From assembly GCA_045644145.1 (NCBI GenBank), contig JAZRGK010000058.1, positions 557 to 64,556 on the forward strand: DNA of 64,000 bases, read 5' to 3'. The notes beneath the pieces are model-generated. The model searched no databases and had not been told where the DNA came from. It saw only the letters and a program-made list of their open reading frames with translations. Below, piece by piece: positions 5,401 through 40,640 of this stretch (position 1 is the stretch's first letter; every line of letters begins with the position of its first letter). The DNA is from Candidatus Flemingiibacterium sp. (GTDB taxonomy: Bacteria; Bacillota; Clostridia; Oscillospirales; CAG-272). A program made the position numbers and the translations under genes.

Positions 5401-6708
5401 ATCCACAACCTTAGTTGCAGGATCGTAACCTTCAAGTGTACATACAGTACCGGGAATAATTTTTGCTTCGGAGACTTCGTTGCTGTCATTGAGGTTATAT
5501 GCAATATAATAATAATCACCAAGATAGTTTGTGGGTAACAAAACTGATTCTTGCTCACAGGTATGAGCAACGTTATATGTAAATCCGTCGATTGTTACGG
5601 TTTCCATCAAGTTTTTGCCGAAACCGGTAGTAGGATCGGTTATGTATTTCTGCGTGGAGCCGTTGTATTTGCCAAAACGGGTGTAGGCCGTGTCAGCGGG
5701 AATAGAAGAATCCTCATCCAATGCCATAAAAGGAATGTGGTGTTCTGTAGCATAAGTTTCAACTGTAGAGCCAGTATAGCCGTAAAGTTCTAAGTTAGCG
5801 TGACAGTTAGAGAATACATCTGTACTTGTGCCAAATTTCACATCTATGGAATATACCATTACTTTTATGAGAGTATCACAATGGTTAAACGCACCGCCAT
5901 CGATGCTTTTTACACTATTAGGGATAGTTATGCTTGAAAGGGCAGTACATGACTGAAACGTAGCAACGCCAATGCTTTTTACTCCATCAGGAATGGTTAC
6001 ACTCTTAATATTAGTAGCTCCATCAAATGCAAATCTATTAATACTGATTACACCATTAGGAATCATATACATTTTTCTTGTATTACCTATGGGGTACCGT
6101 ATAAGTGTAGTTTTATCTTTGTTAAACAGTACACCGTATTCGTCACTTGAGTATATTTTATTGTTTATATCTACGGTAATTTTTGTAAGGTTGTCGCAGT
6201 GAGAAAATGCCCCCTCACCAATGCTTATTATACTGTTTGGGATAATTATGCTAGCAAGATCTCTACAGTAGGAAAATGCTACCTCACCAATGCTTGTTAT
6301 GCTATCTGGAATCATTACGTTTGTAAGAGCATAACAAAACGAAAATGCACCGTCGCCAATGCTAGTTACACTATTGGGTATGGAAATGCTCACAAGACTG
6401 CAATCGTAGAATGCATAGTTGCCAATATTTGTGACACCGTCCTCAATTATAACAGATTTTATGCTGTCGCAGTAAATATTCCACGGTGCAGTAGAATAAA
6501 ATGTGATAGAATCATAATAATAATCAGCCATCGCACCATTACCAGAGATAGTCAACGTCCCGTTTTCAGTGAATTTCCATGTCAGATTACTTCCATCGCC
6601 CTCGCCACCACAATAACCGCTTGCAACAATATCAGCGGCAGATGCAGATAATGGCAGCAATGACATCACCATGCAACAAATCAAAATGAAACTAATAATT
6701 TTTTTCAT
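2425..6708 (-). CDS. Secreted BspA-type leucine-rich-repeat surface protein with InlB B-repeat/Flg_new domain and C-terminal SLH domains
   Basis: Signal peptide; IPNSVTSIGDGAF repeats; ITFEPNGG...RDGYIFDGWYTD; SLH motifs (FGDVDDDDWFY, NRAMLVTVLWR, WAAANGIVNGY). Confidence 0.9.
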   Translation of the reverse strand: MKKIISFILICCMVMSLLPLSASAADIVASGYCGGEGDGSNLTWKFTENGTLTISGNGAMADYYYDSITFYSTAPWNIYCDSIKSVIIEDGVTNIGNYAFYDCSLVSISIPNSVTSIGDGAFSFCYALTNVMIPDSITSIGEVAFSYCRDLASIIIPNSIISIGEGAFSHCDNLTKITVDINNKIYSSDEYGVLFNKDKTTLIRYPIGNTRKMYMIPNGVISINRFAFDGATNIKSVTIPDGVKSIGVATFQSCTALSSITIPNSVKSIDGGAFNHCDTLIKVMVYSIDVKFGTSTDVFSNCHANLELYGYTGSTVETYATEHHIPFMALDEDSSIPADTAYTRFGKYNGSTQKYITDPTTGFGKNLMETVTIDGFTYNVAHTCEQESVLLPTNYLGDYYYIAYNLNDSNEVSEAKIIPGTVCTLEGYDPATKVVDTDQFAPVIEGSTLPSGSYYVSDVTGSSFPSDQIGSWIGDQVRIYCVGEQIFKVIHVIEGSGVITDYDEINSIVYIDDTGYNVYPDTELINTIKQSILYSKDYVLYDNTLVSLSSDNKYLSVEINNTGKSYFVGDEIRFFIYDCTETEDDYLHWTKPEGLVIQISDNETISLKKHIEYDDFAECVFVADKPGVVTITISDDITSAPINVTLHIAEDKYQSLRADNIPTYEYDIVIDKDFYNAYVNGMYVTDFTYKYNSYGTYTFDFSVYNETYTPGVVEVYNEKGELIDIKTIKKFSDPSSLKSVVYGGKDMIVDLWNGDSFSFRGVSASKKTEISVEVPFDGYVVVTNSCVLSPACLYVNLIDYFLTGTSLIDSTVKFDTDTFDYISRETIWAVLSSEYGTSTLATLHEDFFKEYATTIAQGSVSTIFGIATDNINMLFDSIDVNFEDILKDAGIGYAFSTVQGLLQKGGGPAGAALSAIFYVQKMLNFAMQTMHLANNSTNEIAWAVFTPYIEDRGMSEITSKDGITVKSEVEFPTDTILQVYRIVDYSNTANGLDIDENDNYTLYDISLVRNGQEAQPDKPVTVYIPVPEGYSQSSIMVYKQDQHGDWVFVEVMIYNGMIVFEVDHFCLFAIIEDSKDNYTEHTITFEPNGGTVSINSLSTKSDGKLASLPIATRDGYIFDGWYTDPVTGTQITTSTVFISDTTIYAHWKKDDLSDDRETNIYWLLIQLRNQRFEITATANNGGVITPDGTSEVKYGNNITHSITPDEGYAIADVVVDGESVGAVSEYTFENVKEAHAITALFKELAWENPFGDVDDDDWFYEDIEYAYETGLMIGTSDDSFSTTEIVNRAMLVTVLWRLEGSPIVDSIVNFVDIPSGEWYTDAVNWAAANGIVNGYGDGIFGATNDLTHEQVTAILNRYAVYKKLSENVNGNADDAYTNSEWAENNVLWADLNGMFDGIGSDISNLTKGASRAELAAYLRRFCENVMK

Positions 6709-11105: not shown

Positions 11106-12767
11106 TCATTCTGCAGCAATATTTTCTGTATATCGTAAAATAATCGTTGCAACCTGCGCTCTGGTACAATCATCCTTCGGGGACAGAGTGGTATCACTTG
11201 TACCCTTTATAAGTCCCTTTGCATATGCCCACTGCACTGCAGGCTTCGCATAATCGCTAACGTCTGCGGCGTCTGTATATGCGTCAAGTGCCGTACCGTC
11301 TGACGGCGTCAAGCCCTTGTACTTTAGATAGCGGTACAGTATAGTCACCATATCCTGGCGGCTAATACTGTCGTTTGTACCAAAAGTGTCCGCGGTATAG
11401 CCGTTGACGATTCCGTTTTCACTCGCCCATGCAATTGCATCGGTGTACCACGTATCAGCCGCAACATCATTGAATGTCACGCCTACACTTGCAGCAGGCT
11501 TACCGTCAAGTCTGTGAAGAACCGTTACGAGCATCGCTCGTGTCATCGGCATATCGGGTGAAAACTCCGTAGCACTTGTTCCTGCGAAAAGTCCCATTTC
11601 GGTAATCTTTTCAACCGCATCAAAATACCAGCTACCGCGAGCAACGTCGGTAAAGCGTGGTGCTTTAGGCTTTTGTCTAAAGAAAAACTCAATATGAGTT
11701 TTCGAAATTACGCTTGCGATAGTAACCGTCGTATCATCGGGATACGCCACTCCGTTTACTACTACCTTTTCAACCTCATATCCTTCATCAGGAGCTGCAA
11801 GCACTGTGACGGAAGTGCCGTAACGAACAAGCTGTTTTTCATAGCCCTCGACGATCTTACCGTTCTCTCCTGCGTTTGCAGTGACCTCAATCAGATTCTT
11901 TTCGCCTGCAATAAGTCCACCGATGACTCCGGAAATGTCACTTTGCTTTTTACCGTAGAACTTGGCATCCTCGTATGCGTACAGGGCTGAATTAAGCGCC
12001 TTTTCAGCCTCTAAAAATTCATCGGGAAGCACAGCCTGCGAAAGCGCCTTTTCAGCCGCCTTTATAGCCGCGTCAAGAGCATCGTAAGCCGTCTGCGATA
12101 CGGTAAATGCAGGATATATCAGCTCAGACGTAGGATTCATCACAGCCGCATCGAGCTGTGCCTTGGCTTTTTCTACACTTCCGGCAAGCGTTTCTTCATT
12201 CGAAGTTGTCTCTCCTGTGCCTATGCTAATCTCAAGTGCCGAGGGCGCCGATACGATAGGTCTTGCATTGGCAGCCTTATCCGTCAACACCATATCCGAG
12301 AGTGACAAAGTCGATACTCCGTTATTGAGCGTTTTAAATGTGAATTTCGCCAAAACAAAATCCGTGCCAACATTGACTCCGACCAGCTCCGAGCCCGAAG
12401 TCCCGCAAAGATAGCTGAACGTTACTCTACCGGCTGATGCATTGTCGCTAAAGCTCGTAGAAGCAAACTTCTCCGAAGCCTCAACATTTGTCAACTGTAA
12501 GAGGAATGAATTGTAGTGCAGTATGCCGTTGAATGCATATACCGGCGCTGACACCTCACTATTCGCATTTCCCATCGCATCCCTTGTGGAAACGGCAACA
12601 GTTACTGTTACCGTCTCCCCAACAGCGTACGTTTCGCCTTTTTTCGGTGCCGTAGCCTCAAGGTTCAAAGCATAGCTTACATTACTGTCCTCGGATGCTG
12701 ACGTCTGCAAAGCAAGCACCGAAGAGAGCATAAAAATGCAAAGCATTAAGCTAACTATTTTTTTCAT
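11106..12767 (-). CDS. Cohesin-domain SLH anchoring protein
   Basis: Signal peptide; cohesin-like VGETVTVTV...GILHYNSFLLQL...VLAKFTFKTL; FIVAR-like helix; three SLH domains. Confidence 0.8.
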   Translation of the reverse strand: MKKIVSLMLCIFMLSSVLALQTSASEDSNVSYALNLEATAPKKGETYAVGETVTVTVAVSTRDAMGNANSEVSAPVYAFNGILHYNSFLLQLTNVEASEKFASTSFSDNASAGRVTFSYLCGTSGSELVGVNVGTDFVLAKFTFKTLNNGVSTLSLSDMVLTDKAANARPIVSAPSALEISIGTGETTSNEETLAGSVEKAKAQLDAAVMNPTSELIYPAFTVSQTAYDALDAAIKAAEKALSQAVLPDEFLEAEKALNSALYAYEDAKFYGKKQSDISGVIGGLIAGEKNLIEVTANAGENGKIVEGYEKQLVRYGTSVTVLAAPDEGYEVEKVVVNGVAYPDDTTVTIASVISKTHIEFFFRQKPKAPRFTDVARGSWYFDAVEKITEMGLFAGTSATEFSPDMPMTRAMLVTVLHRLDGKPAASVGVTFNDVAADTWYTDAIAWASENGIVNGYTADTFGTNDSISRQDMVTILYRYLKYKGLTPSDGTALDAYTDAADVSDYAKPAVQWAYAKGLIKGTSDTTLSPKDDCTRAQVATIILRYTENIAAE

Positions 12768-29789: not shown

Positions 29790-30174
29790 CACATCAGCGA
29801 TATTTGTACTATCAAGCCGCGTTACACATCGTACGAGCATCACGTTTTCTTTGTCTTATGCGCCTCAAATATTGCTTCATAAGTTTGACCACAGAGTTGA
29901 CCACTTTCACGCATGGACTACATGTACACAACGCACACGAAAGCGTCAAACGAAAAAACTTCCGCTCTGTATGTGGTCAAAAAGCGCTAAAAAAGCCCGT
30001 CACCACGGGCTTTTACGGCTTTGGGAGCATGCAGTCGTTTTCGGCTGTGATTTTCAAAAAAGCGAGCAAACGGGCGAAAAACGGCGGAAACGCGAGGAAA
30101 TCGTGATCGAGCGGTGGCGGAAAATGCGGCTTGACCACAGGTTTGACCATAGTTGAGAAAAAATTGAATATTTT

Positions 30175-30249
30175 CGGGGTGTTGCCTAATGGTAAGGCGC
30201 TTGGTTTGGGAGCAGGATGTCGCAGGTTCAAATCCTGTCATTCCGACCA
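30175..30249 (+). tRNA. tRNA-Pro(TGG), chimeric with mispaired stems
   Basis: Cloverleaf with loop TTTGGGA, GGTTCAAATCC T-arm and CCA end; anticodon stem CTTGG/GCAGG has a G-G mismatch. Confidence 0.8.
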
Positions 30250-30337: not shown

Positions 30338-30414
30338 GGAAGCATAGCTCAGCTGGTTAGAGTACTTGCTTGACATGCAAGGGGTCACTGGTTCGATTCC
30401 AGTTGTTTCCACCA
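30338..30414 (+). tRNA. tRNA-Val(GAC)
   Basis: Acceptor GGAAGCA/TGTTTCC, anticodon arm CTTGC-TTGACAT-GCAAG, GGTTCGATTCC, CCA end. Confidence 0.97.
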
Positions 30415-30416
30415 TG

Positions 30417-30444
30417 AAAACCATCGCGAAAGCGGTGGTTTTTT
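30417..30444 (+). terminator. Terminator after tRNA-Val
   Basis: AAAACCATCGC-GAAA-GCGGTGGTTTTTT. Confidence 0.8.
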
Positions 30445-30543
30445 CGTAGGTGGGATGTGCGCAGACCACAGAATTGACCACTTATAAAATATAAAAAACC
30501 CCTTATGATTAAAAATAAATAATAGATATAACGAGGCTGTTTT

Positions 30544-31113
30544 ATGAATGAAATGAAAGAAATAAATGAAGATGAATCTATACTACTTCAACATTTAGCT
30601 ATTCCATCCTTTTTGGCAGAACTTTTTAATGCCGATTTTTTAAATAGCGAATATTTCAAAAACTTACATTATGAAAATGAAATACACAAAGATATTTTAC
30701 GTCGATCTGGGCTTGGCAATCCCGCATGCATGCAAATCATGCTATATTCTCTATTAGTAGTTCCGCAAGAACTACTGTCCAAGCCACAATTTAAATCCTT
30801 TGAGAATTATCAACTAAAGCATTTAAATCCTAAAATACCCACTTACATCGAAGACGGAACTTACTCTACCTATGAAAATGAAGATACTTGTGAAAAAATC
30901 AATTATGTTAGACACATCCGAAATTCTATAGCACATGCTAATATGCATTATTTTGAACGAAACGGAATACCACATGTAAAATTTATTGACAGTTCATTAG
31001 ATAAGAAATCTAAGTGTGAGATTGTTATGCAGTGCAGATATGTCGGATCAATTTTAATGGATTTGCAAAAGAACACTATGAATCTTCTCGATTCTATGCT
31101 ATTTTCTAAATAA
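30544..31113 (+). CDS. HEPN-domain protein (pEK499_p136-like), putative RNase
   Basis: RHIRNSIAH R-X4-H motif and upstream LYSLLVVPQE segment; AT-rich. Confidence 0.7.
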   Translation: MNEMKEINEDESILLQHLAIPSFLAELFNADFLNSEYFKNLHYENEIHKDILRRSGLGNPACMQIMLYSLLVVPQELLSKPQFKSFENYQLKHLNPKIPTYIEDGTYSTYENEDTCEKINYVRHIRNSIAHANMHYFERNGIPHVKFIDSSLDKKSKCEIVMQCRYVGSILMDLQKNTMNLLDSMLFSK

Positions 31114-31191
31114 ACATAAGAATATTTCCGCACAATAGTGCATCTACGGTCAATACCTTTTCATAAAATTTCTGAAAAATTTATTTTCCGT

Positions 31192-31219
31192 TTTCTTTGT
31201 TTACCCCGACGCAAATTTT
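31192..31219 (+). repeat. 28-bp site 1
   Basis: TTTCTTTGTTT-ACCCCG-ACGCAAATTTT. Confidence 0.7.
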
Positions 31220-31252
31220 AAAGGGCGACCGCCTTGGTCGCCCTTCTCTCTA

Positions 31253-32555
31253 TCACGCATTCGCCGCCTTTTTCATCTCCGCAATCTCCGCTTTCATCTC
31301 GCGTATCATTTCTGCCAGCTTCTCCTCGCATTCTTCTCTCGTGTTGGCGTACACATTCCTCGCCATCCGCTTGCCGCCCACTTTCGGCGAATAGCGCCCC
31401 TCGTATAGATGCTCGTTTATCATCGATATACATCCCGTGCCGGGCTTGCGAATCTTGCCTGTGTACGGCTCAAATTTCGCCTCTGTGGCGTTTTCTTGCA
31501 GTTTGTCGGTACTTGCCGCCTTGCTTTCGCTCATATCCGCCATCTCCGCGTTTGTGCCGCCTATCTCGCGATCGATCTTCGCCGCCGCTTGCTGCTGCAT
31601 AGTGTCTGTAATATGGCTGTAGATATCAAGCGTAGTTTCCGCGCTGACGTGACCGATCATAGCAGATAGCGTCTTTACATCCATCCCGTTCTCGATCGCC
31701 ATCGTGGCAAAGGTGTGGCGCAGATCGTGAAACCGCACCTTCTTGCATTTAGCACGCTCGAGTATCAGCTGAAACCGACGGTACACCGCCGACGGATCTC
31801 TCGGTGCATCTTCTTTCACTGGTGACGGGAACATCCACTCGCTTTTTGCTGTTTGTTTCATCTCCGTGAGTAGTTGCACCATTTCCTTCGCTAACCGTAT
31901 CGTGCGTATTGAAGATTTCGTCTTGAGCGTAGATACTGTAGTTTTGCCTTCAACCTTCACCACTTGTCGTGAGATATTGAGGTCGCCCGTCTGCGTTAGC
32001 ACCTGCATTTCTTTTGATTTCTTCGGTGGCAGTTTGCATCAGATTGCGGGATTTGTTGTGATCAGTCCCTCGGCAACCGCCTTTTCGAGTGCCGCTCTGC
32101 ATGTGGTGTGACATGAGCGCACCATGCGGGCGGACAATCCCTCGCCGTATTTTTCGGTTAGGTGCTTTCGCCCCGATTTTTCAGCTTTGCGTAAAACTGC
32201 TGCAGGTCGTTCTGCGTGAGCTTATTGAGCGGTATTTTGCCTATCATTGGAATGATGTGCGTATATATTCTGTTTTCATAACACGCTTGTGTTTTAGGTT
32301 TTACCGTCAGCTTGCAGAAGTTTTGATACCAGAAATCAAGCCAGTCGCCAAACGGCATGTCTGCCTTTAATTTCTCATTTGACCGACCGCACTCCTCTTT
32401 TAGTGCTTTGAGCTTTTGCGCACACTCCGTCTTGGTATCCGCCAAGACGTTTTTGGTTTTGGGATAACCGTTATCGTTGTATCCGACAACTACACGGCCT
32501 TCCCAACGTCCGTCCTTACGAAGGAATATACTACCCTCGCCGTTCTTTTTGCCAT
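31253..32555 (-). pseudogene. Tyrosine integrase 2 (Tn916-like), disrupted
   Basis: NGEGSIFLRKDGRWEGR arm-binding domain; RFHDLRHTFAT, GHVS..TTLDIYSH; frameshifts near 32545 and 32175, stop near 32040, catalytic box I deleted near 31990. Confidence 0.9.
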
Positions 32556-32571
32556 GATATATTCCCACTTT

Positions 32572-33062
32572 TTACATTATCATAATATTTTTCATCATAT
32601 TACTAACCACTTCCGAGGCATTCTTCTCCATATCGGCGGTTACATGCGTGTAAGTATCAAGCGTAAAGCTTGCATTGGTGTGGCCGAGTATGCCTGAGAG
32701 CGTTTTTGCATCCACTCCGCCTTGCATTGCGTGGGTGGCGAAGGTATGACGCAGGTCGTGGAAGCGTACCATTGGCAGCTCAGCACGTTTCAGAAGCGCT
32801 TTCAGCTTACGGTATGCCGCGGCAAGATTAACCGGATACTCGGGATGAAACAAATTCGGGAATATCCATTCACTTACCGCTGTTTTCTGTCGTGTGCGAA
32901 GCATCTCGATCACGCTTTGCGGTAGCGTGATACTGCGCACACCTTTGTCTGTCTTGGTTTCGCCGATATTTACTCCCCCTCCTTTCTTTACCGACACTGA
33001 TCTCTGTATGCGAAGTTTGCCGGTATCCATGTTGAAGTCGCTCCACTTGAGTCCACATATCT
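32572..33062 (-). pseudogene. Tyrosine integrase 1, 5'-truncated
   Basis: ICGLKWSDF...RFHDLRHTFAT...LGHTNASFTLDTYTH; N-terminal half missing. Confidence 0.9.
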
Positions 33063-33379
33063 TTCCGCAACTGCGAGGCCTTGGCATGAACTCTATGGCA
33101 TATACCTACGGCATTGCCGATCTCACCGAAGCAACATCATATTTCGCACATCCGGTTTTGTCAGCTCGGCTTATCGGGATGTGCGAGGTGTTGCTTACGC
33201 ATAAAAACAATAATGCTGAATATATTTTCGGCTATACCGATGCGATGAAACTACGATCCTCTATGACTCTGTTCGCTTTGGTCAGCGAAAACGGCTCTGT
33301 GTTTCATAGAGTATTAGAGCAGTTTTATTCAGGCAAAATGGATAATAGGACTTTAGAGATTTTACAACGTCAACAGTGA
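33057..33379 (+). pseudogene. DUF1810 family gene, 5'-truncated
   Basis: IFPQLRGLG...YGIADLTEATSYFAHPVL...DAMKLRSSMTLF; N-terminus absent. Confidence 0.8.
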
Positions 33380-33420
33380 TACGTAAAACGCCGATGAGGA
33401 ATCGAAACCTCATCGGCTGT

Positions 33421-33448
33421 TTTCTTTGTCTAATGCGGCGCAAATATT
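33421..33448 (+). repeat. 28-bp site 2
   Basis: TTTCTTTGTCT-AATGCG-GCGCAAATATT, directly after a GCCGATGAGG hairpin. Confidence 0.85.
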
Positions 33449-33528
33449 GCACTCCACTCCCCTTGACCAATTCACGAATTTATGGTACAACATACCCACA
33501 CCAATCTCACTACACACGAGGGCACACC

Positions 33529-34182
33529 ATGGAAAACATCACCATCCGTTTAGAAACCAAAAAAGACTACCGCGCAGTCGAGGAACTCACACGCGAGGCG
33601 TTTTGGAACGTCTACAAGCCCGGCGCGGACGAGCATTACTATGTACACATGATGCGTTCTCATCCCGATTTCATCCCCGAGCTTGCGTTCATACTTGAAA
33701 AGGACGGTGAAATCGTGGGCAACATCATGTACACGAAGGCGTGGCTTGAGGACGAGAACGGCAATCGCAAAGAGATACTCTCCTTCGGACCGCTTTGCGT
33801 TGCTCCCAAGTATCAGCGTCAGAAGCTCGGAAAGATTCTCATCGAGCACTCCTTCAATGTGGCACGCAAGATGGGATATGACGTGAACATCAATTTCGGC
33901 AATCCCGGCAACTATGTCAGCCGCGGATTTGTCAGTTGCAAAAAGAAAAACGTCAGCTTTGTCGTGGACGGCAACTTCCCGACGGCACTTCTCGTAGCCG
34001 AGCTTGTTCCGGGCGTGCTTGACGGCAAAAAGTGGATGTACATTCCCTCAACTGCCGCCGACTGCTGTGTGGACACCGCTGCTGTGGAGGCGTTCGATGC
34101 GACTTTCCCTGTGAAGGAAAAGAAGTGGATGCCGAGCCAGGAGGAGTTCTATATTTACAGCCATTCTTCGGTTGTGAGATAA
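33529..34182 (+). CDS. GNAT N-acetyltransferase (YhbS-like)
   Basis: IRLETKKDYRAVEELTREAF, GPLCVAPKYQRQKLGKILI; own promoter TTGACC-N17-TACAAC. Confidence 0.9.
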   Translation: MENITIRLETKKDYRAVEELTREAFWNVYKPGADEHYYVHMMRSHPDFIPELAFILEKDGEIVGNIMYTKAWLEDENGNRKEILSFGPLCVAPKYQRQKLGKILIEHSFNVARKMGYDVNINFGNPGNYVSRGFVSCKKKNVSFVVDGNFPTALLVAELVPGVLDGKKWMYIPSTAADCCVDTAAVEAFDATFPVKEKKWMPSQEEFYIYSHSSVVR

Positions 34183-34222
34183 ACGTAGAATGCCGATGTG
34201 ATTTCTATTCCTCATCGGCGTA

Positions 34223-34250
34223 TTTTTTTGTCTAATGCGGCGCAAATATT
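34223..34250 (+). repeat. 28-bp site 3
   Basis: TTTTTTTGTCT-AATGCG-GCGCAAATATT. Confidence 0.85.
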
Positions 34251-34399
34251 TGATGCTTGCCCCAGACGCGAGCATCGGGGAAGTAGAATATGAATATAAA
34301 AGTAAGCGTTTTCTGTCAAGACAAATTCATAACTATATGCTATAATGGTATCACAAACATACAGCTGAACGTTTGAATCAAAGATTAGGAGGGCTATTC

Positions 34400-35632
34400 A
34401 TGGAAAATAGCGATCTTATTACAAAAGCGTTGAACTATATAAGATCCGAGAATAAGAAAAGCGATATTACCATTGATGACATAGCAACCCATGCAGGCTT
34501 TTCTACGGATTACTTCAACCGTTTTTTCTTTGCACACACCGGGTTTAATATTATGGAATATGTTCGGTTCAGCAGAATGAAAAAAGCTGCACGGCTTTTA
34601 CGCGTAACGAATAACGATATTCTTGACATTGCTTTGGATTGCGGATATGAAGCACACGAAAGTTTTTCAAGAGCATTCAAAAATCAATACGGCATATCGC
34701 CGAGCGAATACAGAAAAAAGTATGAAAAAGTAGAAGCATATTACGGCGATTTTTATAATGACACAATCGGAGCAAGACTTTTGCATGAGTTCAAAAACTT
34801 CAAGATTGCTGACAGCGATGAAGTAATCGATTACCTTCTCGAAACGGATGCGCTCCGCTTCGGATATATCGCCGTTTGCTTCCGTGTCAACGGCGGTGTC
34901 GCTCTATATAATGGTGAAGACTTCAAAGAAGGTTTTGTTTGGTTTACCGAATGGGATAACCGAATTGAAGGAGAGATCATTTGTGATGATTGGGATAAAA
35001 TTGCTGAATATAAAAGTATTTTCTCGGATGAACGCTTTGATATAATTCTGTATACTATGGAATCCGATCAAGTTATTAAAAATGAATTATTTAAGCGTGG
35101 AGTAACTATAGGCACTGTCAAACGCCGTCAATACAATATCTACACCGGGGAACCGTACACACTGTCATCCATAGAAGATATTTCTATGAGACTTATCAAA
35201 TACGATGATATCGATCTTGTTGAGAAATTCTTTTATGAAAGAGATCCGAGCCGGGGAAGTAATTCTCCGAGGCTAAAGCAGTTGAAGCATGAACTGTATC
35301 AAAGAGATGTGCTTGGTAATACCGAGCATTCTGTATTTATGTACGGCATATTTAGAGGCGTACGCTTAATCGGAGTAAGCGACGGAGGGTTACAGAGCGC
35401 ACACGGATTTGTCATAAACAATTGCGTAGTAACTACTGCTTTACCGGAATATGAAACCGAAGAGCTGTATCAGTATGCTTTCAAATTTGTAACCAATGCC
35501 GCCCTTGAAAAAGGCGCATTACCGATTGACGATACACAAACGCCAAATACACCTGATGAAAACAAAAGTGGCGTTTTCAATTCTACCGACCTCGGCTATA
35601 AAACGGTTACGAACGTCTGTATTTTGAAGTAA
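34400..35632 (+). CDS. AraC-family regulator with long C-terminal domain
   Basis: ILDIALDCGYEAHESFSRAFKNQYGISPSEYR; RBS AGGAGG. Confidence 0.9.
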   Translation: MENSDLITKALNYIRSENKKSDITIDDIATHAGFSTDYFNRFFFAHTGFNIMEYVRFSRMKKAARLLRVTNNDILDIALDCGYEAHESFSRAFKNQYGISPSEYRKKYEKVEAYYGDFYNDTIGARLLHEFKNFKIADSDEVIDYLLETDALRFGYIAVCFRVNGGVALYNGEDFKEGFVWFTEWDNRIEGEIICDDWDKIAEYKSIFSDERFDIILYTMESDQVIKNELFKRGVTIGTVKRRQYNIYTGEPYTLSSIEDISMRLIKYDDIDLVEKFFYERDPSRGSNSPRLKQLKHELYQRDVLGNTEHSVFMYGIFRGVRLIGVSDGGLQSAHGFVINNCVVTTALPEYETEELYQYAFKFVTNAALEKGALPIDDTQTPNTPDENKSGVFNSTDLGYKTVTNVCILK

Positions 35633-35658
35633 TCACCTGCCCCGCCTTGCGCGGGGCT

Positions 35659-35686
35659 TTTCTTTGTCTACGGTGCCGCATTATTT
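35659..35686 (+). repeat. 28-bp site 4
   Basis: TTTCTTTGTCT-ACGGTG-CCGCATTATTT. Confidence 0.75.
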
Positions 35687-35857
35687 GGTGGTCGACACTG
35701 CGCGCTATGCTTGCCCAGACGCAAGCGTCGGGGAAAGTGGAAAATACATTTATGTCAATGAACACTTGATGTTCTTAACAACGAATTGATAATTGTTTTT
35801 TTGCAAATATATGCTATAATATAATCACACCGGTGATAAACATTTTGGAGGTACGAT

Positions 35858-36963
35858 ATGAACATTAAAATAGGTGCGATTATCAAAAAACTTCGCGCAG
35901 AAAATAACATCACACAAGAAACGCTTGCCACTGCCATAGGGGTGACACCCCAAGCGATATCTCGTTGGGAAGTCGAAGGCGGTTATCCCGACATCGAACT
36001 ACTGCCTGCACTGGCTGATTTCTTCTCCGTCAGCACTGATGAACTTCTCGGGTATAAATTGTCTGAAAGAGAACAGGAACTCGCTGACATGAAAAAGGAG
36101 ATAGAACGCCTTGCAGAGGTTGGTTCTGTTGAAGAACGAGTAGCATATGCAAGAAATGCGTATGCTCATTATCCGAACGATTATGAGATTCGTTATAATC
36201 TTGCGGTTTGCCTGTATCATGTATGGGACGAAACCCATGATGAGGCACTTTTTGCAGAGATTGAATCTCTGCTCAACTCGGTAGCCAATGAATGTAACGA
36301 TGAGAATATTCGATACGACGCCATCAATACACTTATCATACTGTATGGAGAAGTCAAACAACCTGAAAAAGCAAAAGAGTGGGCGAACCGCCTGAGCCCT
36401 ATGAAATACTGCCGCGAAACGGCGCTTTCGGCGGAATTGGTGATGGGAAAACCAAATTCTATATTCAAGATGAAATTGATAAGTTGACTGATGGCCTCGG
36501 ACTTACTATTCGTAATCTTGTACTAAACGATGATCTTCCTAACGATTCGTCCACGTGGGAGAGTAAAATTGAAATGCTCCGTATTTCTAATCAACTGTAT
36601 TTTATGATTTACGGCAACGATCTGCTTTACCATCATAACAGGCTTTCCAAGAATCACTGGCTTATCTCTACCTATCAGATAGCTCTGGGCAAAGCGGATG
36701 AGGCACTCAAATCCCTTGAAAAAATGTGCGATCATGCCGTAAGTTATGACATTTCCTATCAGAATGATCACGGCAAGTATTTCACATCCTTCTTGGTTGA
36801 TACTCAGTTCTATCCCGAAAAAAGCAAAGATTTCCACGAACTCACCGGACATACAGATTGCTATCATATGCTGGATCGTTTACAGCATGGTCGATATGAC
36901 AGTATCCGTCAGGATCCTCGTTTCGTTGCCATTGTTGAAAGATTGAATCAATACGCAATATGA
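35858..36963 (+). pseudogene. XRE-HTH/TPR-like regulator, frameshifted near 36430
   Basis: HTH ITQETLATAIGVTPQAISRWE; ORFs 35858..36487 and 36379..36963 overlap and read as one protein. Confidence 0.75.
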
Positions 36964-36991
36964 TTTCTCTTGCCCCGCCTCGCGCGGGGCA

Positions 36992-37019
36992 TTTTTTTGC
37001 CTGATACGGCGCAAATATT
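36992..37019 (+). repeat. 28-bp site 5
   Basis: TTTTTTTGCCT-GATACG-GCGCAAATATT. Confidence 0.85.
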
Positions 37020-37032
37020 GTACGCTGATCTC

Positions 37033-37175
37033 TTGACTTTCATCTCAATCCATGCTATAATAATAAAAACGAAAACGTCACCGGAGGCAGAACGCCGTAG
37101 TGTTCAATTGCCGGATTAGGTGTCCGAGTGAGCTCGGGTTATTGTGTGTGCAATAGCCGGAGTTTTATTTTTTGG
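37033..37175 (+). promoter_or_regulatory. SigA promoter and structured leader with terminator-like hairpin
   Basis: TTGACT-N17-TATAAT; CTCGGGTTATTG/CAATAGCCGGAG hairpin plus T-tract just before the RBS. Confidence 0.55.
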
Positions 37176-37184
37176 AGGCATATT

Positions 37185-37739
37185 ATGAAAAACACAACCG
37201 TAACCCTCGTACCGCTCACAGAAGACGACCGCGAACAGTTCATTCTCGATAACCAATGGTCGTTCAAATACGGCGCAATGCAGGAATTCGGCGAGCGCGA
37301 TGACCACATCGACGGCGACGGCGAGATCATCTCCCGCAAAACCATCGAGCGCTGCATCGACGATCCGCAGAACGAAACCTACCGCATCATTGTTGACGGC
37401 AGAAAGGTCGGCGGCGTGATTTTGAAGATCGACCGCGAGACTAACCACAATCACCTCGAGATTCTGTTTACCGCGCCCGAGGAGCACAGCAAAGGCATCG
37501 GATACGGCGCGTGGCTGGCAGTAGAAGCACTCCATCCCGAAACGAAGGTATGGGAAACCTGCACGCCCTATTTCGAGAAGCGCAACATCCATTTTTACGT
37601 CAACAAGTGCGGCTTCAAAATCGACCAGTTCTGGTGCGAATATTTCCAGCCGAGTGAGCTGATGATCGACGATGAGGAGCACGATCCCGACGAAGGTCCG
37701 GATGAAATGTTCCGATTTGTGAAGGTGATGAAGCCGTAA
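37185..37739 (+). CDS. GNAT N-acetyltransferase
   Basis: LFTAPEEHSKGIGYGAW, RNIHFYVNKCGF; RBS GGAGG. Confidence 0.9.
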   Translation: MKNTTVTLVPLTEDDREQFILDNQWSFKYGAMQEFGERDDHIDGDGEIISRKTIERCIDDPQNETYRIIVDGRKVGGVILKIDRETNHNHLEILFTAPEEHSKGIGYGAWLAVEALHPETKVWETCTPYFEKRNIHFYVNKCGFKIDQFWCEYFQPSELMIDDEEHDPDEGPDEMFRFVKVMKP

Positions 37740-37740
37740 G

Positions 37741-37768
37741 TACATTCATCTGCCGTGGTGCAAATATT
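37741..37768 (+). repeat. 28-bp site 6 (left arm diverged)
   Basis: TACATTCATCT-GCCGTG-GTGCAAATATT immediately after the stop codon. Confidence 0.65.
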
Positions 37769-37832
37769 GCCGCCCACACCGCATAAATCCCCCGTTTTGC
37801 CGCAAACTAAAAAGAAACGGGAGAGTGGCAAA

Positions 37833-38510
37833 ATGGATATTATTAAGGTCATACTAACAGCACTTCTATCGGTGGGAGCGCTGTTCATCATCACAAAGAT
37901 CATGGGACACAAGCAGGTGGCACAGCTTGACTTTTTCGATTACGTTGGCGGTATCACCATCGGCTCTATTGGCGCGGAGCTTGCGACAGAGCTTGAAGAA
38001 CCGTGGAAGCCGCTTATCGCGCTCGCGGTCTACGGTCTTGCATCGGTCGTGCTTACCTTAGCCGCACACAAAATGCCTCGCACACGCAAATATATCAACG
38101 GCACACCCACGATTTTGATGAACAATGGCAAGCTTTACCGTGCAAACCTCAAAAAAGCGAAGCTCGACCTATCCGAGTTTTTGCTTCTCTGCCGCGAACA
38201 GGGATATTTCGACCTCGACGAGATACAGACGGCGGTGTTTGAGCATAACGGAAAGCTGTCCATACTGCCGAAATCCGCAAACCGCCCTGCAACTCCCGAG
38301 GATTTGGGTATTACGGTAAAATCCGCAGAGATCGGCGTGGAGGTTATTATGGACGGGCGTATAATGGGCGAAAATCTTTCCCGTATGGGACGAAACGAAA
38401 GATGGCTCGAAAAACAGCTCAAATCACAAAGGCACAAAAACGCGAAAGACATCTTTCTCGGCATTTACCGTGCAGATGATGACACCCTTACACTTTATCA
38501 AAGCGAATAA
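37833..38510 (+). CDS. DUF421/YetF family membrane protein
   Basis: KIMGHKQVAQLDFFDYVGGITIGSI, AVFEHNGKLSILPK. Confidence 0.9.
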   Translation: MDIIKVILTALLSVGALFIITKIMGHKQVAQLDFFDYVGGITIGSIGAELATELEEPWKPLIALAVYGLASVVLTLAAHKMPRTRKYINGTPTILMNNGKLYRANLKKAKLDLSEFLLLCREQGYFDLDEIQTAVFEHNGKLSILPKSANRPATPEDLGITVKSAEIGVEVIMDGRIMGENLSRMGRNERWLEKQLKSQRHKNAKDIFLGIYRADDDTLTLYQSE

Positions 38511-38553
38511 GCCGCGCATATACTGATACTGTACCTGATAAGGAGGTATCAAT

Positions 38554-38991
38554 ATGCGAAATCACAACTGCGGCAGGCATCCCGAAGTGCGCGACTACGG
38601 TGCCGAGCCGTTTGTATTCAATATTAGTCACGCAACTAACATGAACCGCAATTTCCGCACCACGCTCTGGACGGGATGTCATATGCAGTTAACGCTCATG
38701 TGTATCCCCGTCGGCGGCGAAATCGGCGTTGAAATGCACGAAGACGTTGACCAGTTTATCCGCATCGAGAGCGGTCACGCCAAGGTTTATATGGGAAGCT
38801 GCCGTCATTCGCTCTGCGAAAAAGCGTGCGTGGACGGGAATTATGCAGTTATCATTCCTGCCGGTACGTGGCACAACATCGTCAACGTCGGAAACCGACC
38901 GCTGAAGCTGTATTCGCTATACGCGCCGCCCCAGCATCCATACGGAACGGTGCATCAGACGAAAGCCGACGCCGAGCACGAGGGGCACTGA
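38554..38991 (+). CDS. Cupin-domain protein
   Basis: EIGVEMHEDVDQFIRIESG, IPAGTWHNIVN, LYSLYAPPQH. Confidence 0.9.
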   Translation: MRNHNCGRHPEVRDYGAEPFVFNISHATNMNRNFRTTLWTGCHMQLTLMCIPVGGEIGVEMHEDVDQFIRIESGHAKVYMGSCRHSLCEKACVDGNYAVIIPAGTWHNIVNVGNRPLKLYSLYAPPQHPYGTVHQTKADAEHEGH

Positions 38992-39033
38992 AATAATAAT
39001 CGCCGATGAGGAATGCAAAACCTCATCGGCGTA

Positions 39034-39061
39034 TTTCTTTGTCTGCGGCATAAACATTTAT
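39034..39061 (+). repeat. 28-bp site 7 (left arm intact, spacer or right arm altered)
   Basis: TTTCTTTGTCT-GCG-GCATAAACATT after a GCCGATGAGG hairpin. Confidence 0.6.
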
Positions 39062-39318
39062 CCGCGAAACCTCTCGGCAAGATCAGCGCGGTGCAAGCCT
39101 ATACTTCCGATCGGCTTGCCGTCCTCTTTCAGACAAACTGCGTAGGTTTCAGTAGCGCTGAGCACCGTGCGGATGATCTCACGGCTGTTCTCAACACTCG
39201 TGTGCGGCTGCCAGCCGGCAGGCGGACCTACCTCGGGATCGCAGGCATATTTATATAGACCCTGGGCATCATCCTCGCGCCATGGACGGAGAATGAGGCG
39301 GCTTGTTTCAAGTGTCAT
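39058..39318 (-). pseudogene. RimJ/RimL-type GNAT, 3'-truncated
   Basis: [18 protein letters not shown]...KPIGSIGL then a stop before the expected ELGYW and CoA-binding motifs. Confidence 0.75.
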
Positions 39319-39337
39319 TTCACACCTCCACACAGTT

Positions 39338-40600: not shown

Positions 40601-40640
40601 AAACACCGATGAGGTTACCTGTAACCCTCATCGGTGTTTC
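40601..40640 (+). terminator. CCGATGAGG-family hairpin terminator
   Basis: AAACACCGATGAGG...CCTCATCGGTGTTT. Confidence 0.75.

Follow-up and report, generated by a model that had tools for sequence, protein, structure and literature searches.

The window analysed here, a stretch of 64,000 nucleotides, lies on one contig (C58) of a draft assembly of Candidatus Flemingiibacterium sp. that comprises 82 contigs and 2.09 Mb at 46% G+C. Downstream of a tRNA-Pro/tRNA-Val gene pair it carries a row of small gene modules separated by copies of a 28-bp site, together with the remains of two tandem tyrosine integrase genes, IntA and IntB (Table 1). The first-pass annotation of this sequence took the row for an integron-like cassette array bounded by seven sites in the same orientation and linked to the integrase pair.

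The recurrent site and the modules that it bounds

A search of the window for TTTCTTTGTCT-N6-GCGCAAATATT with up to 3 mismatches returned five matches, all on the plus strand (29846, 31192, 33421, 34223 and 36992), as opposed to no match in any of 100 dinucleotide-preserving shuffles, so the recurrence of the site at module boundaries is real. The places of the seven sites first described were confirmed, but the site at 35659 is weak, those at 37741 and 39034 are half-sites, and an eighth one, at 29846, had been missed. The central hexamers, read directly from the sequence, are ACCCCG, AATGCG, AATGCG, ACGGTG, GATACG and GCCGTG, the same six as initially listed. They differ from site to site, as had been claimed, but the hexamer is not free: position 16 is C in 63 of 65 sites and position 17 is G in 58 of 65. 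The inverted TTTG/CAAA core noticed at the outset forms a dyad centred on positions 14/15. Geometrically this makes the 11-6-11 reading sound, and two 11-bp arms around 6 bp are a possible layout of the site. Sites 33421 and 34223 are nearly identical (27/28 bp). Five of the window sites come after a terminator hairpin, their left arm doubling as the T-tract of the hairpin.

Table 1. Sites, genes and modules of the array in window coordinates; the last row refers to an intact element in a congener
Feature	Position	Strand	Remarks
Site S0	29846..29873	+	TTTCTTTGTCT-TATGCG-CCTCAAATATT; 55 nt past the stop of a histidine kinase gene, upstream of the tRNA pair
tRNA-Pro(TGG)	30175-30249	+	Chromosomal anchor of the element family, with tRNA-Val
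tRNA-Val(GAC)	30338-30414	+	Downstream flank ends at 30485
HEPN (pEK499_p136) cargo gene	30544..31113	+	G+C 0.32; variable slot between the tRNA-Val flank and S1
Site S1	31192..31219	+	Integrase-proximal att core, followed by the IntA terminator hairpin (31221-31247)
IntA pseudogene	31253..32568	-	Catalytic C-terminal part 31253-32008; N-terminal SAM-like part 32158-32568
IntB remnant	32572..33087	-	C-terminal catalytic part only
DUF1810 gene	33035..33379	+	Lacks ~26 N-terminal profile positions; ends in hairpin 33390-33417
Module 1	33421..34220	+	S2, promoter-like region, GNAT acetyltransferase gene 33529-34182, terminator hairpin 34192-34220
Site S2	33421-33448	+	Opens module 1
Module 2	34223..35657	+	S3, promoter-like site 34318-34346, AraC-family regulator gene 34400-35632, hairpin 35639-35657
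Site S3	34223-34250	+	Opens module 2
Module 3	35659..36991	+	S4, frameshifted XRE-TPR gene 35858-36487 + 36379-36963, hairpin 36971-36991
Site S4	35659-35686	+	Left arm good, right arm degenerate; nhmmer E = 0.67
Module 4	36992..37739	+	S5, promoter-like site 37033-37061, second GNAT gene 37185-37739
Site S5	36992-37019	+	Opens module 4
YetF and cupin genes	37741..39061	+	YetF 37833-38510, cupin 38554-38991; between two half-sites
Half-site	37741-37768	+	Right arm only
Half-site	39034-39061	+	Left arm only
Acetyltransf_3 gene	39058..39333	-	Truncated past profile position 76 of 138, the cut coinciding exactly with the last half-site
Terminal sites of the intact element (L023)	6204-6237 and 11804-11836		Direct orientation

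The gene content first proposed for the intervals (GNAT, AraC, XRE, GNAT, YetF plus cupin) was borne out by Pfam, which found in the four small modules only GNAT, AraC, XRE and GNAT. No fragments of an integrase, a relaxase or the small open reading frames were detected in these four modules by Pfam, a result with which complete loss of such genes remains compatible. The XRE gene is frameshifted in the window and its homologue in genome G007 is a single frame of 368 aa. A scan by consensus matching predicted a strong promoter-like site at 37033-37061 (11/12 with TG), another at 34318-34346 (10/12), and terminator hairpins at 33390, 35639 and 36971. Across the modules the G+C fraction spreads from 0.32 to 0.52. 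Between 29000 and 40000 the two tRNAs alone reach Rfam thresholds, the site having no Rfam match, and PADLOC returned nothing beyond generic HTH matches for the window modules.

The integrase pair is decayed in the window. IntA lies in three pieces, with ~125 bp deleted near 31990 and a TGA in one piece, and IntB has lost ~210 N-terminal residues. The relaxase and the remaining element have been deleted too, and the DUF1810 gene is fused to the IntB remnant through the deletion. In other copies, the slot that is occupied here by the HEPN gene measures 25 nt, 0.9 kb or 3.7 kb.

Several further features of the array were recorded. The second GNAT gene is separated from its strong promoter-like site by a leader of ~120 nt (37062-37184), which contains two hairpins (37122-37139 and 37137-37158) and has no Rfam match. 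One hairpin family (GCCGATGAGG ... CCTCATCGGC) terminates many unrelated genes in site-rich regions and sometimes serves two convergent genes, with copies in the window (33390-33417, 34192-34220, 39003-39031 and 40605-40635) and on other contigs of the assembly (C15:7735 and 9491, C16:103958, C56:18189). A second family (GCCCCGCC..GCGGGGC) terminates the AraC and XRE modules. The truncated Acetyltransf_3 gene (39074-39318) has 79%-identical copies on two element-rich contigs (C2:32409-32653 and C17:16394-16629), so the right-hand "chromosomal" border of the array may itself be mobile DNA.

The two-integrase element and its link to tRNA-Pro

The element that is broken in the window is intact in relatives. 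In genome G013 (locus L023, 6204-11836) it is a unit of ~5.6 kb with direct sites at both ends and the order site, hairpin, IntA, IntB, relaxase, two small genes, second direct site. IntA of this type has 439 aa from the first listed start in an open frame of ~480 aa (overall ~440-480 aa); IntB has 375 aa and is 40% identical to IntA. Both match PF00589 and PF14659, and in the relatives both keep the active-site residues R, K, HxxR, H and Y. The relaxase of the relatives scores 295.7 bits with the MobP3 model NF041499 (cut-off 150) and 107.5 bits with PF18555 (MobL). With its own integrases, its own relaxase without mating-pore genes, and direct att repeats, the element is, judging by its parts, a predicted integrative mobilizable element (IME), and the window holds the decayed remnant of such a ~5.6-kb IME with IntA, IntB and a MobP3 relaxase. 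Contigs C7 and C32 of the same assembly carry intact IntA/IntB pairs as well as relaxase fragments, and on C7 a 3' fragment of IntA adjoins a full copy. The best match to IntA in a plasmid collection was 40%. A C-terminal extension of IntA of ~100 aa (L021 15973-17421 in a congener; tail at 31253-31560 in the window) resembles the N-terminal RKDGRWEGR module of both integrases; neither the tail nor the N-terminal copies have a Pfam match even at E<=5, and the idea of an arm-binding N-terminal domain in IntA and IntB, prompted by a resemblance to such domains, was dropped.

Scanning for relatives of IntA in one genome per species yielded 59 loci from gut Clostridia assemblies. IntA identities of 88-100% correspond to Candidatus Flemingiibacterium, and the cultured Hominenteromicrobium mulieris has an IntA of 65% identity. 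Within the genus, a manual count showed IntB next to IntA at 19 of 22 IntA loci, the three misses being at contig ends or partial. We considered 39 of the 59 loci assessable (a complete 3' end of IntA followed by 150 nt or more of sequence, and an identity of at least 50%), and in 31 of these the site lies 29-76 nt past the IntA stop. Its polarity relative to IntA is the same in 60 of 62 sites. A second direct site is present 7.3-9.8 kb off on the IntB side in 7 of the 12 loci with enough flank, and nine loci have extra sites 0.27-6 kb past the first. Many species thus have the site at the IntA 3' end with constant polarity, and it bounds the far end of the element too. At 30 of the 59 loci a tRNA-Pro gene lies 0.1-5 kb from IntA on its 3' side, always in the same relative orientation; six loci have the site immediately behind the tRNA-Pro terminator hairpin, so that the T-run of the terminator is the left arm. 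Taken together, the link to the IntA 3' end, the polarity and the tRNA-Pro flank across species point to the site as the att core of a tRNA-Pro-linked, two-integrase family. The sites are accordingly tied to a conserved integrase pair in relatives, as the first reading of the locus had it, but both integrases of the window itself are pseudogenes.

The association also appears when the site is taken as the starting point. Four of five distant genomes that were picked solely for having the site possess a nearby IntA homologue or fragment, and the distant genomes G329 and G218 encode a full IntA/IntB pair at 65-66%. Three unverified "Bacteriophage sp." scaffolds from human faeces carry the integrase pair; in a profile scan, two had a site abutting IntA and one (L072) had no site. 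One of the two scaffolds with a site bears a further two in direct orientation, at distances of 9.5 and 12.7 kb.

Within the assembly, a profile of the site (nhmmer, E<=1) found 25 copies on 10 of the 82 contigs, six of them on C58 and the others on C2, C5, C7, C15, C16, C17, C32, C51 and C56. There are 16 PF00589 matches in the assembly, 12 of which form six tandem pairs, on C2, C7, C16, C17, C32 and C58; all six contigs bear sites, and a manual count placed 17 of the 25 sites within 8 kb of an integrase pair. This is the concentration near the pair that was predicted at first. A spread of the motif over the whole genome, which would have spoken against any link to the integrases, was rejected on the count of contigs. 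On C7 (position 282), on C32 (1228) and at 31192 in the window, the site is followed by a hairpin and then by the 3' end of a reverse-strand integrase gene; at C17:2247 the site is likewise followed by a hairpin, but the adjacent reverse-strand gene encodes an ADP-ribosylglycohydrolase and IntA is 4.3 kb away.

The site is patchily distributed. Among the genomes of the genus, a search with up to 2 mismatches gave 74 matches in 20 of 32 genomes, as opposed to 4 for the reversed-pattern control. This assembly accounted for 13 of the matches, the larger-genome species had none, and 12 of the 32 congeners lack the site. In a sample of the order (up to 1 mismatch), 36 of 401 genomes had a match, this assembly having 11 and no other more than 3.

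Some observations concern the surroundings of the sites and elements. A 27-bp variant of the site, with the centre one base shorter and the right arm GCGCAGTTTTT, is found at C2:22882, C17:10019 and C51:1054, directly after the stop of a gene for a 281-299-aa HTH_36 protein on the IntB side of three elements. The word GACCAC(A) (TTGACCACAGnnTTGACCAC and variants) occurs in tandem near sites in the window (29885-29906, 30132-30150 and 30464-30485) and in clusters elsewhere (C7:231-250, C16:102712-103068, C15:6525-6555, C56:18036-18055). Of 160 genome copies of TGACCAC, 25 lie within 1.5 kb of a site, compared with ~5 expected. Possible roles for these words are as arm-type sites, as binding sites of accessory proteins or as promoter elements of tRNA genes. 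The cargo between site and IntA has a defence-like character on two contigs: FRG-domain and AIPR proteins at C7:904-3829, the former matching the PADLOC candidate system PDC-S15 with E = 2e-34, and ADP-ribosylglycohydrolase, Macro and HNH proteins at C17:2338-6392. C58, C7 (106-182) and C32 (199-275) each have tRNA-Val(GAC) with the same 71-nt downstream flank, ~90% alike, followed by a two-integrase element; the three copies could represent genuine paralogous loci or else variants from different strains within the assembly. At L023 (G013:C30), no more than the last 12-13 nt of tRNA-Val, with its usual downstream flank (12171-12305), precede one element copy, a sign that a further element has inserted into tRNA-Val itself.

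Left and right flanks of the site assort independently

The copies of the site from this assembly and from fetched congener loci made up a set of 73, for which we clustered the 120 nt on the left and the 120 nt on the right. Left cluster L1 (7 sites) is paired with right clusters R2 (3), R4 (3) and R5 (1), and R2 (5) in turn with L1 (3), L3 (1) and, once, an unclustered flank. The IntA flank R1 (9) has on its left either L4, the tRNA-Val flank (3), or one of six unrelated sequences, and R3 is paired with L5, L8 and one unclustered flank. To R3 belongs the right flank of S0, present in two congeners with different left neighbours. The two flanks of the site thus assort independently between genomes. 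A hairpin abuts the site on the left in 12 of the 73 cases, on the right in 22 and on neither side in 41, and several of the sites lie between divergent promoters.

Single modules also recur in other company. The first GNAT module is shared with G016:C84 at 89% identity, the homology beginning exactly at the left arm of site 33421 and stopping where the hairpin ends. In G016:C182 the second GNAT module is enclosed by two sites, and in G004:C71 it has another left neighbour; a supposed joint of this module to the Acetyltransf_3 gene in G016:C182 was rejected, the flank being the promoter of another module. Metagenomes were checked in the form of contigs, not reads, of four animal gut or faecal runs, the best public run sharing at most 0.14 of the sampled words. 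On an X1 contig, 33609-34198 (first GNAT) is followed by ~1.7 kb of other sequence and then by 36991-37125 (site and second GNAT), and in an X2 contig 3,727 other letters separate 30385-30485 from 31188-31472, so that the HEPN slot is filled with different cargo. The AraC module (34253-35716) occurs on an X1 contig with 11 differences and a different left neighbour. A weaker joint in X2 places 37738 directly before 33419, i.e., the second GNAT before the site and first GNAT. A joint that goes back 792 letters, from 34198 to 33407 (X1, X2 and X8), was rejected as a circle junction; similar hairpins precede 33421 and 34223. The flank clusters, G016:C84 and the metagenome contigs agree in that species differ in the content and order of their modules, the breakpoints lying at sites; such variation between strains was among the predictions made from the window sequence.

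We consider it somewhat more probable than its negation that the 28-bp motif is the att core of a small IME family of gut Clostridia and that modules have been accreted and shuffled there. By this mechanism, any pair of such sites would be a substrate for recombination by IntA and IntB. Each integration next to a site already present would add a module and duplicate the site, and recombination between direct sites would remove or move modules. Over time, a row of units, each consisting of a site, a promoter, one or more genes and a terminator, would be built up. The relaxase-bearing element would be one unit among the others, so that neighbouring modules could leave with it. Because the window element is decayed, its array would be movable only by the intact pairs of C7 and C32 acting in trans. 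From the conserved pairing and the geometry of the TTTG/CAAA dyad one might guess that each recombinase takes one arm of the asymmetric site. Cassette-level mobility is a proposal only, as are free circles, the crossover point and the division of labour between the two integrases.

Several observations weigh against accretion and shuffling at an att core. Related genomes are not independent samples, and in a draft of 82 contigs some of the "copies" may be strain variants. In G016:C84, non-site DNA directly follows the hairpin of the GNAT module, so that this boundary is at the hairpin; on the AraC contig from X1 the shared sequence sets in at the right-hand edge of the site and is preceded by unrelated DNA. 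No pair of empty and occupied sites with the same outer flanks was found by eye among the 73 sites, and the site was not found after tRNA-Pro/tRNA-Val in six element-free congeners. The excised circles expected at first were not seen in the four runs; these being contigs, uncovered parts and absent circles are uninformative. Breakpoints inside the 6-bp spacer, another early expectation, were not demonstrated: identity between sites is 0.88 for pairs that share only the left flank, 0.85 for those that share only the right and 0.76 on average for those that share neither, and position-by-position covariation of the site with its flanks places no crossover. Most tyrosine recombinases require identical overlaps, and neighbouring sites here have unlike hexamers (AATGCG, ACGGTG, GATACG, ACCCCG). 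Finally, G007 has the YetF, cupin and Acetyltransf_3 genes in the same order with no sites, so the YetF-cupin interval may be older chromosome flanked by half-sites rather than a cassette.

The strongest rival, which we regard as rather unlikely, is accretion without shuffling: whole elements would have integrated serially at the att site and ordinary deletions would have trimmed them to their cargo, leaving the sites as scars and the single modules immobile. The window element did decay by deletions away from the site (the broken IntA, the fusion of IntB to DUF1810), the IntA 3' fragment beside the full copy on C7 is of the kind expected, some module ends are without a site, and tandem structures with decayed remnants are the norm described for Firmicutes in excerpts of PMC5704250 and PMC12084326. 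On the other hand, the four small modules are tidy units of site, promoter, gene and terminator with no backbone remnant, and the same unit recurs with exact site-edge boundaries and different neighbours in several species and in metagenome contigs, which independent random deletions would not reproduce.

Shuffling of modules by homologous (RecA-type) or microhomology recombination at repeats of 30-60 bp, made up of the site and shared hairpins, with the integrases using the site for their own element only, appears improbable. It would agree with the near identity of some sites (33421 and 34223), with hairpin families that extend the repeat and with the one boundary at a hairpin instead of a site; yet unrelated sites, at the mean identity given above, are a poor substrate for homologous exchange, 41 of the 73 adjoin no hairpin, and every array site keeps the polarity set by the integrase. 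Very improbable is a regulatory or terminator-linked motif (an operator, or else the T-tract of an intrinsic terminator) that is carried along with genes acquired by horizontal transfer and matches boundaries owing to its intergenic position, an idea suggested by the hairpins before five window sites and by the six loci with the site after the tRNA-Pro terminator but contradicted by the site at the IntA 3' end in 31 of 39 loci, by the two direct copies that flank elements, by the sites between divergent promoters, and by the lack of the site in 12 of 32 congeners and of any Rfam match; its variant as a terminator tail was rejected because a left-hand hairpin is found at 12 of the 73 sites only. 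Nor do the 41 sites without a hairpin and the 10 of 82 contigs agree with a motif spread genome-wide after terminators, the outcome that the first-pass annotation had named as fatal to its idea.

Accretion and shuffling at the att core can be extended to a bolder version, which we put forward tentatively as possible rather than probable. The system would then be a functional counterpart of the integron in Firmicutes, in which IntA and IntB, acting on a 28-bp duplex site, excise single modules as circles and reinsert them at any copy, the relaxase element being one more module and its neighbours being carried along by conjugative mobilisation. Even without this extension, gut Clostridia would have a second route to an integron-like outcome, in which a short, recognisable site allows unrelated genes with their own expression signals to be stacked, rearranged and handed on. 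With the 28-bp profile and the IntA/IntB pair beside tRNA-Pro as a handle, hotspots of accessory genes and the cargo that they carry can be mapped in metagenome-assembled genomes, whose assemblies usually break in regions of this kind. Two active-looking recombinases, conserved as a pair on an asymmetric site, may moreover form a heteromeric integrase that does not belong to the Xer system and that lends itself to study. Since a cultured carrier, H. mulieris, exists, the overall idea can be tested at the bench.

Relation to known systems

No description of the element and no paper with both arms of the motif was found in the literature, supplementary tables lying outside the search. The view that this is not a described system did not survive in full: the nearest described concept is the tandem accretion of IMEs with cis-mobilizable remnants (PMC5704250, in the excerpts available), so the system is not without precedent. 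In the accretion described in excerpts of PMC5704250 and PMC12084326, an element that bears an integrase and a relaxase sits beside a tRNA gene with direct att repeats at both ends, tandem segments without integrase or transfer genes are bounded by the same att, and the resident element decays. The same excerpts mention neither a two-integrase IME nor the site; the supplementary tables of these papers may list two-integrase IMEs. The window resembles a cis-mobilizable element (CIME) in that the att-bounded modules at 33421-37739 lack integrase and transfer genes and lie beside a decayed IntA/IntB element. In contrast to CIMEs, there are up to seven site-bounded intervals here, mostly single-gene units of 0.8-1.4 kb with their own promoter and terminator; the four small modules hold no backbone remnant that would betray derivation from a decayed integrative conjugative element or IME; two paralogous recombinases are present, not one; and the att core lies after the tRNA-Pro terminator, not inside the tRNA.

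Tn554 and the recombinase-in-trio elements are among the elements with several tyrosine recombinases. Such genes are likewise kept as one mobility module in SEs, which have two (excerpt of PMC9345347), and in GInts, which have three (excerpt of PMC5385486). SEs and GInts are proteobacterial and Tn554 is staphylococcal; by description, these elements have other accessory genes and targets. In the excerpts cited, neither SEs nor GInts are described as building site-bounded arrays of modules.

With integrons, as presented in excerpts of PMC4889954, the array shares small unrelated modules in one orientation, a recurring recombination site, a tyrosine recombinase, and module content and order that differ between strains. 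The integrases fall far below the respective cut-offs: IntA and IntB score 43.5 and 38.8 bits with the integron-integrase model TIGR02249 (cut-off 265) and 36.4 and 24.4 bits with PRK15417 (cut-off 435). Judged on its anatomy, the site is an asymmetric 28-bp core of the duplex type and not a folded attC; the modules have promoter-like sites and terminators of their own in the consensus scan and are not promoterless; and the recombinases are encoded within a mobilizable element that also has a relaxase. No complete integron was found in any Firmicutes genome in the IntegronFinder survey, according to the same excerpts (PMC4889954).

The dif (pdif) modules of Acinetobacter, served by XerC and XerD, are similar in that their 28-bp sites, of an 11-6-11 geometry which the site here may share, bound small accessory modules in many combinations (PMC13141974 and PMC12907356, in excerpts). 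Scores with the XerD model TIGR02225 (cut-off 329.6) were 68.0 bits for IntA and 77.8 bits for IntB, and those with the XerC model TIGR02224 (cut-off 335.15) were 67.4 and 64.4 bits. Unlike in pdif modules, the recombinases are encoded by the element and not by host xer genes, the sites are all direct and do not alternate, the arm sequences are unrelated, and the setting is a chromosomal tRNA-linked island and not a plasmid. The original separation of this array from integrons and XerCD dif modules holds, given the low integrase scores and the direct sites, and by its predicted features the system is neither an integron nor a Xer/dif module system: its outcome is integron-like and its kind is that of IMEs and CIMEs.

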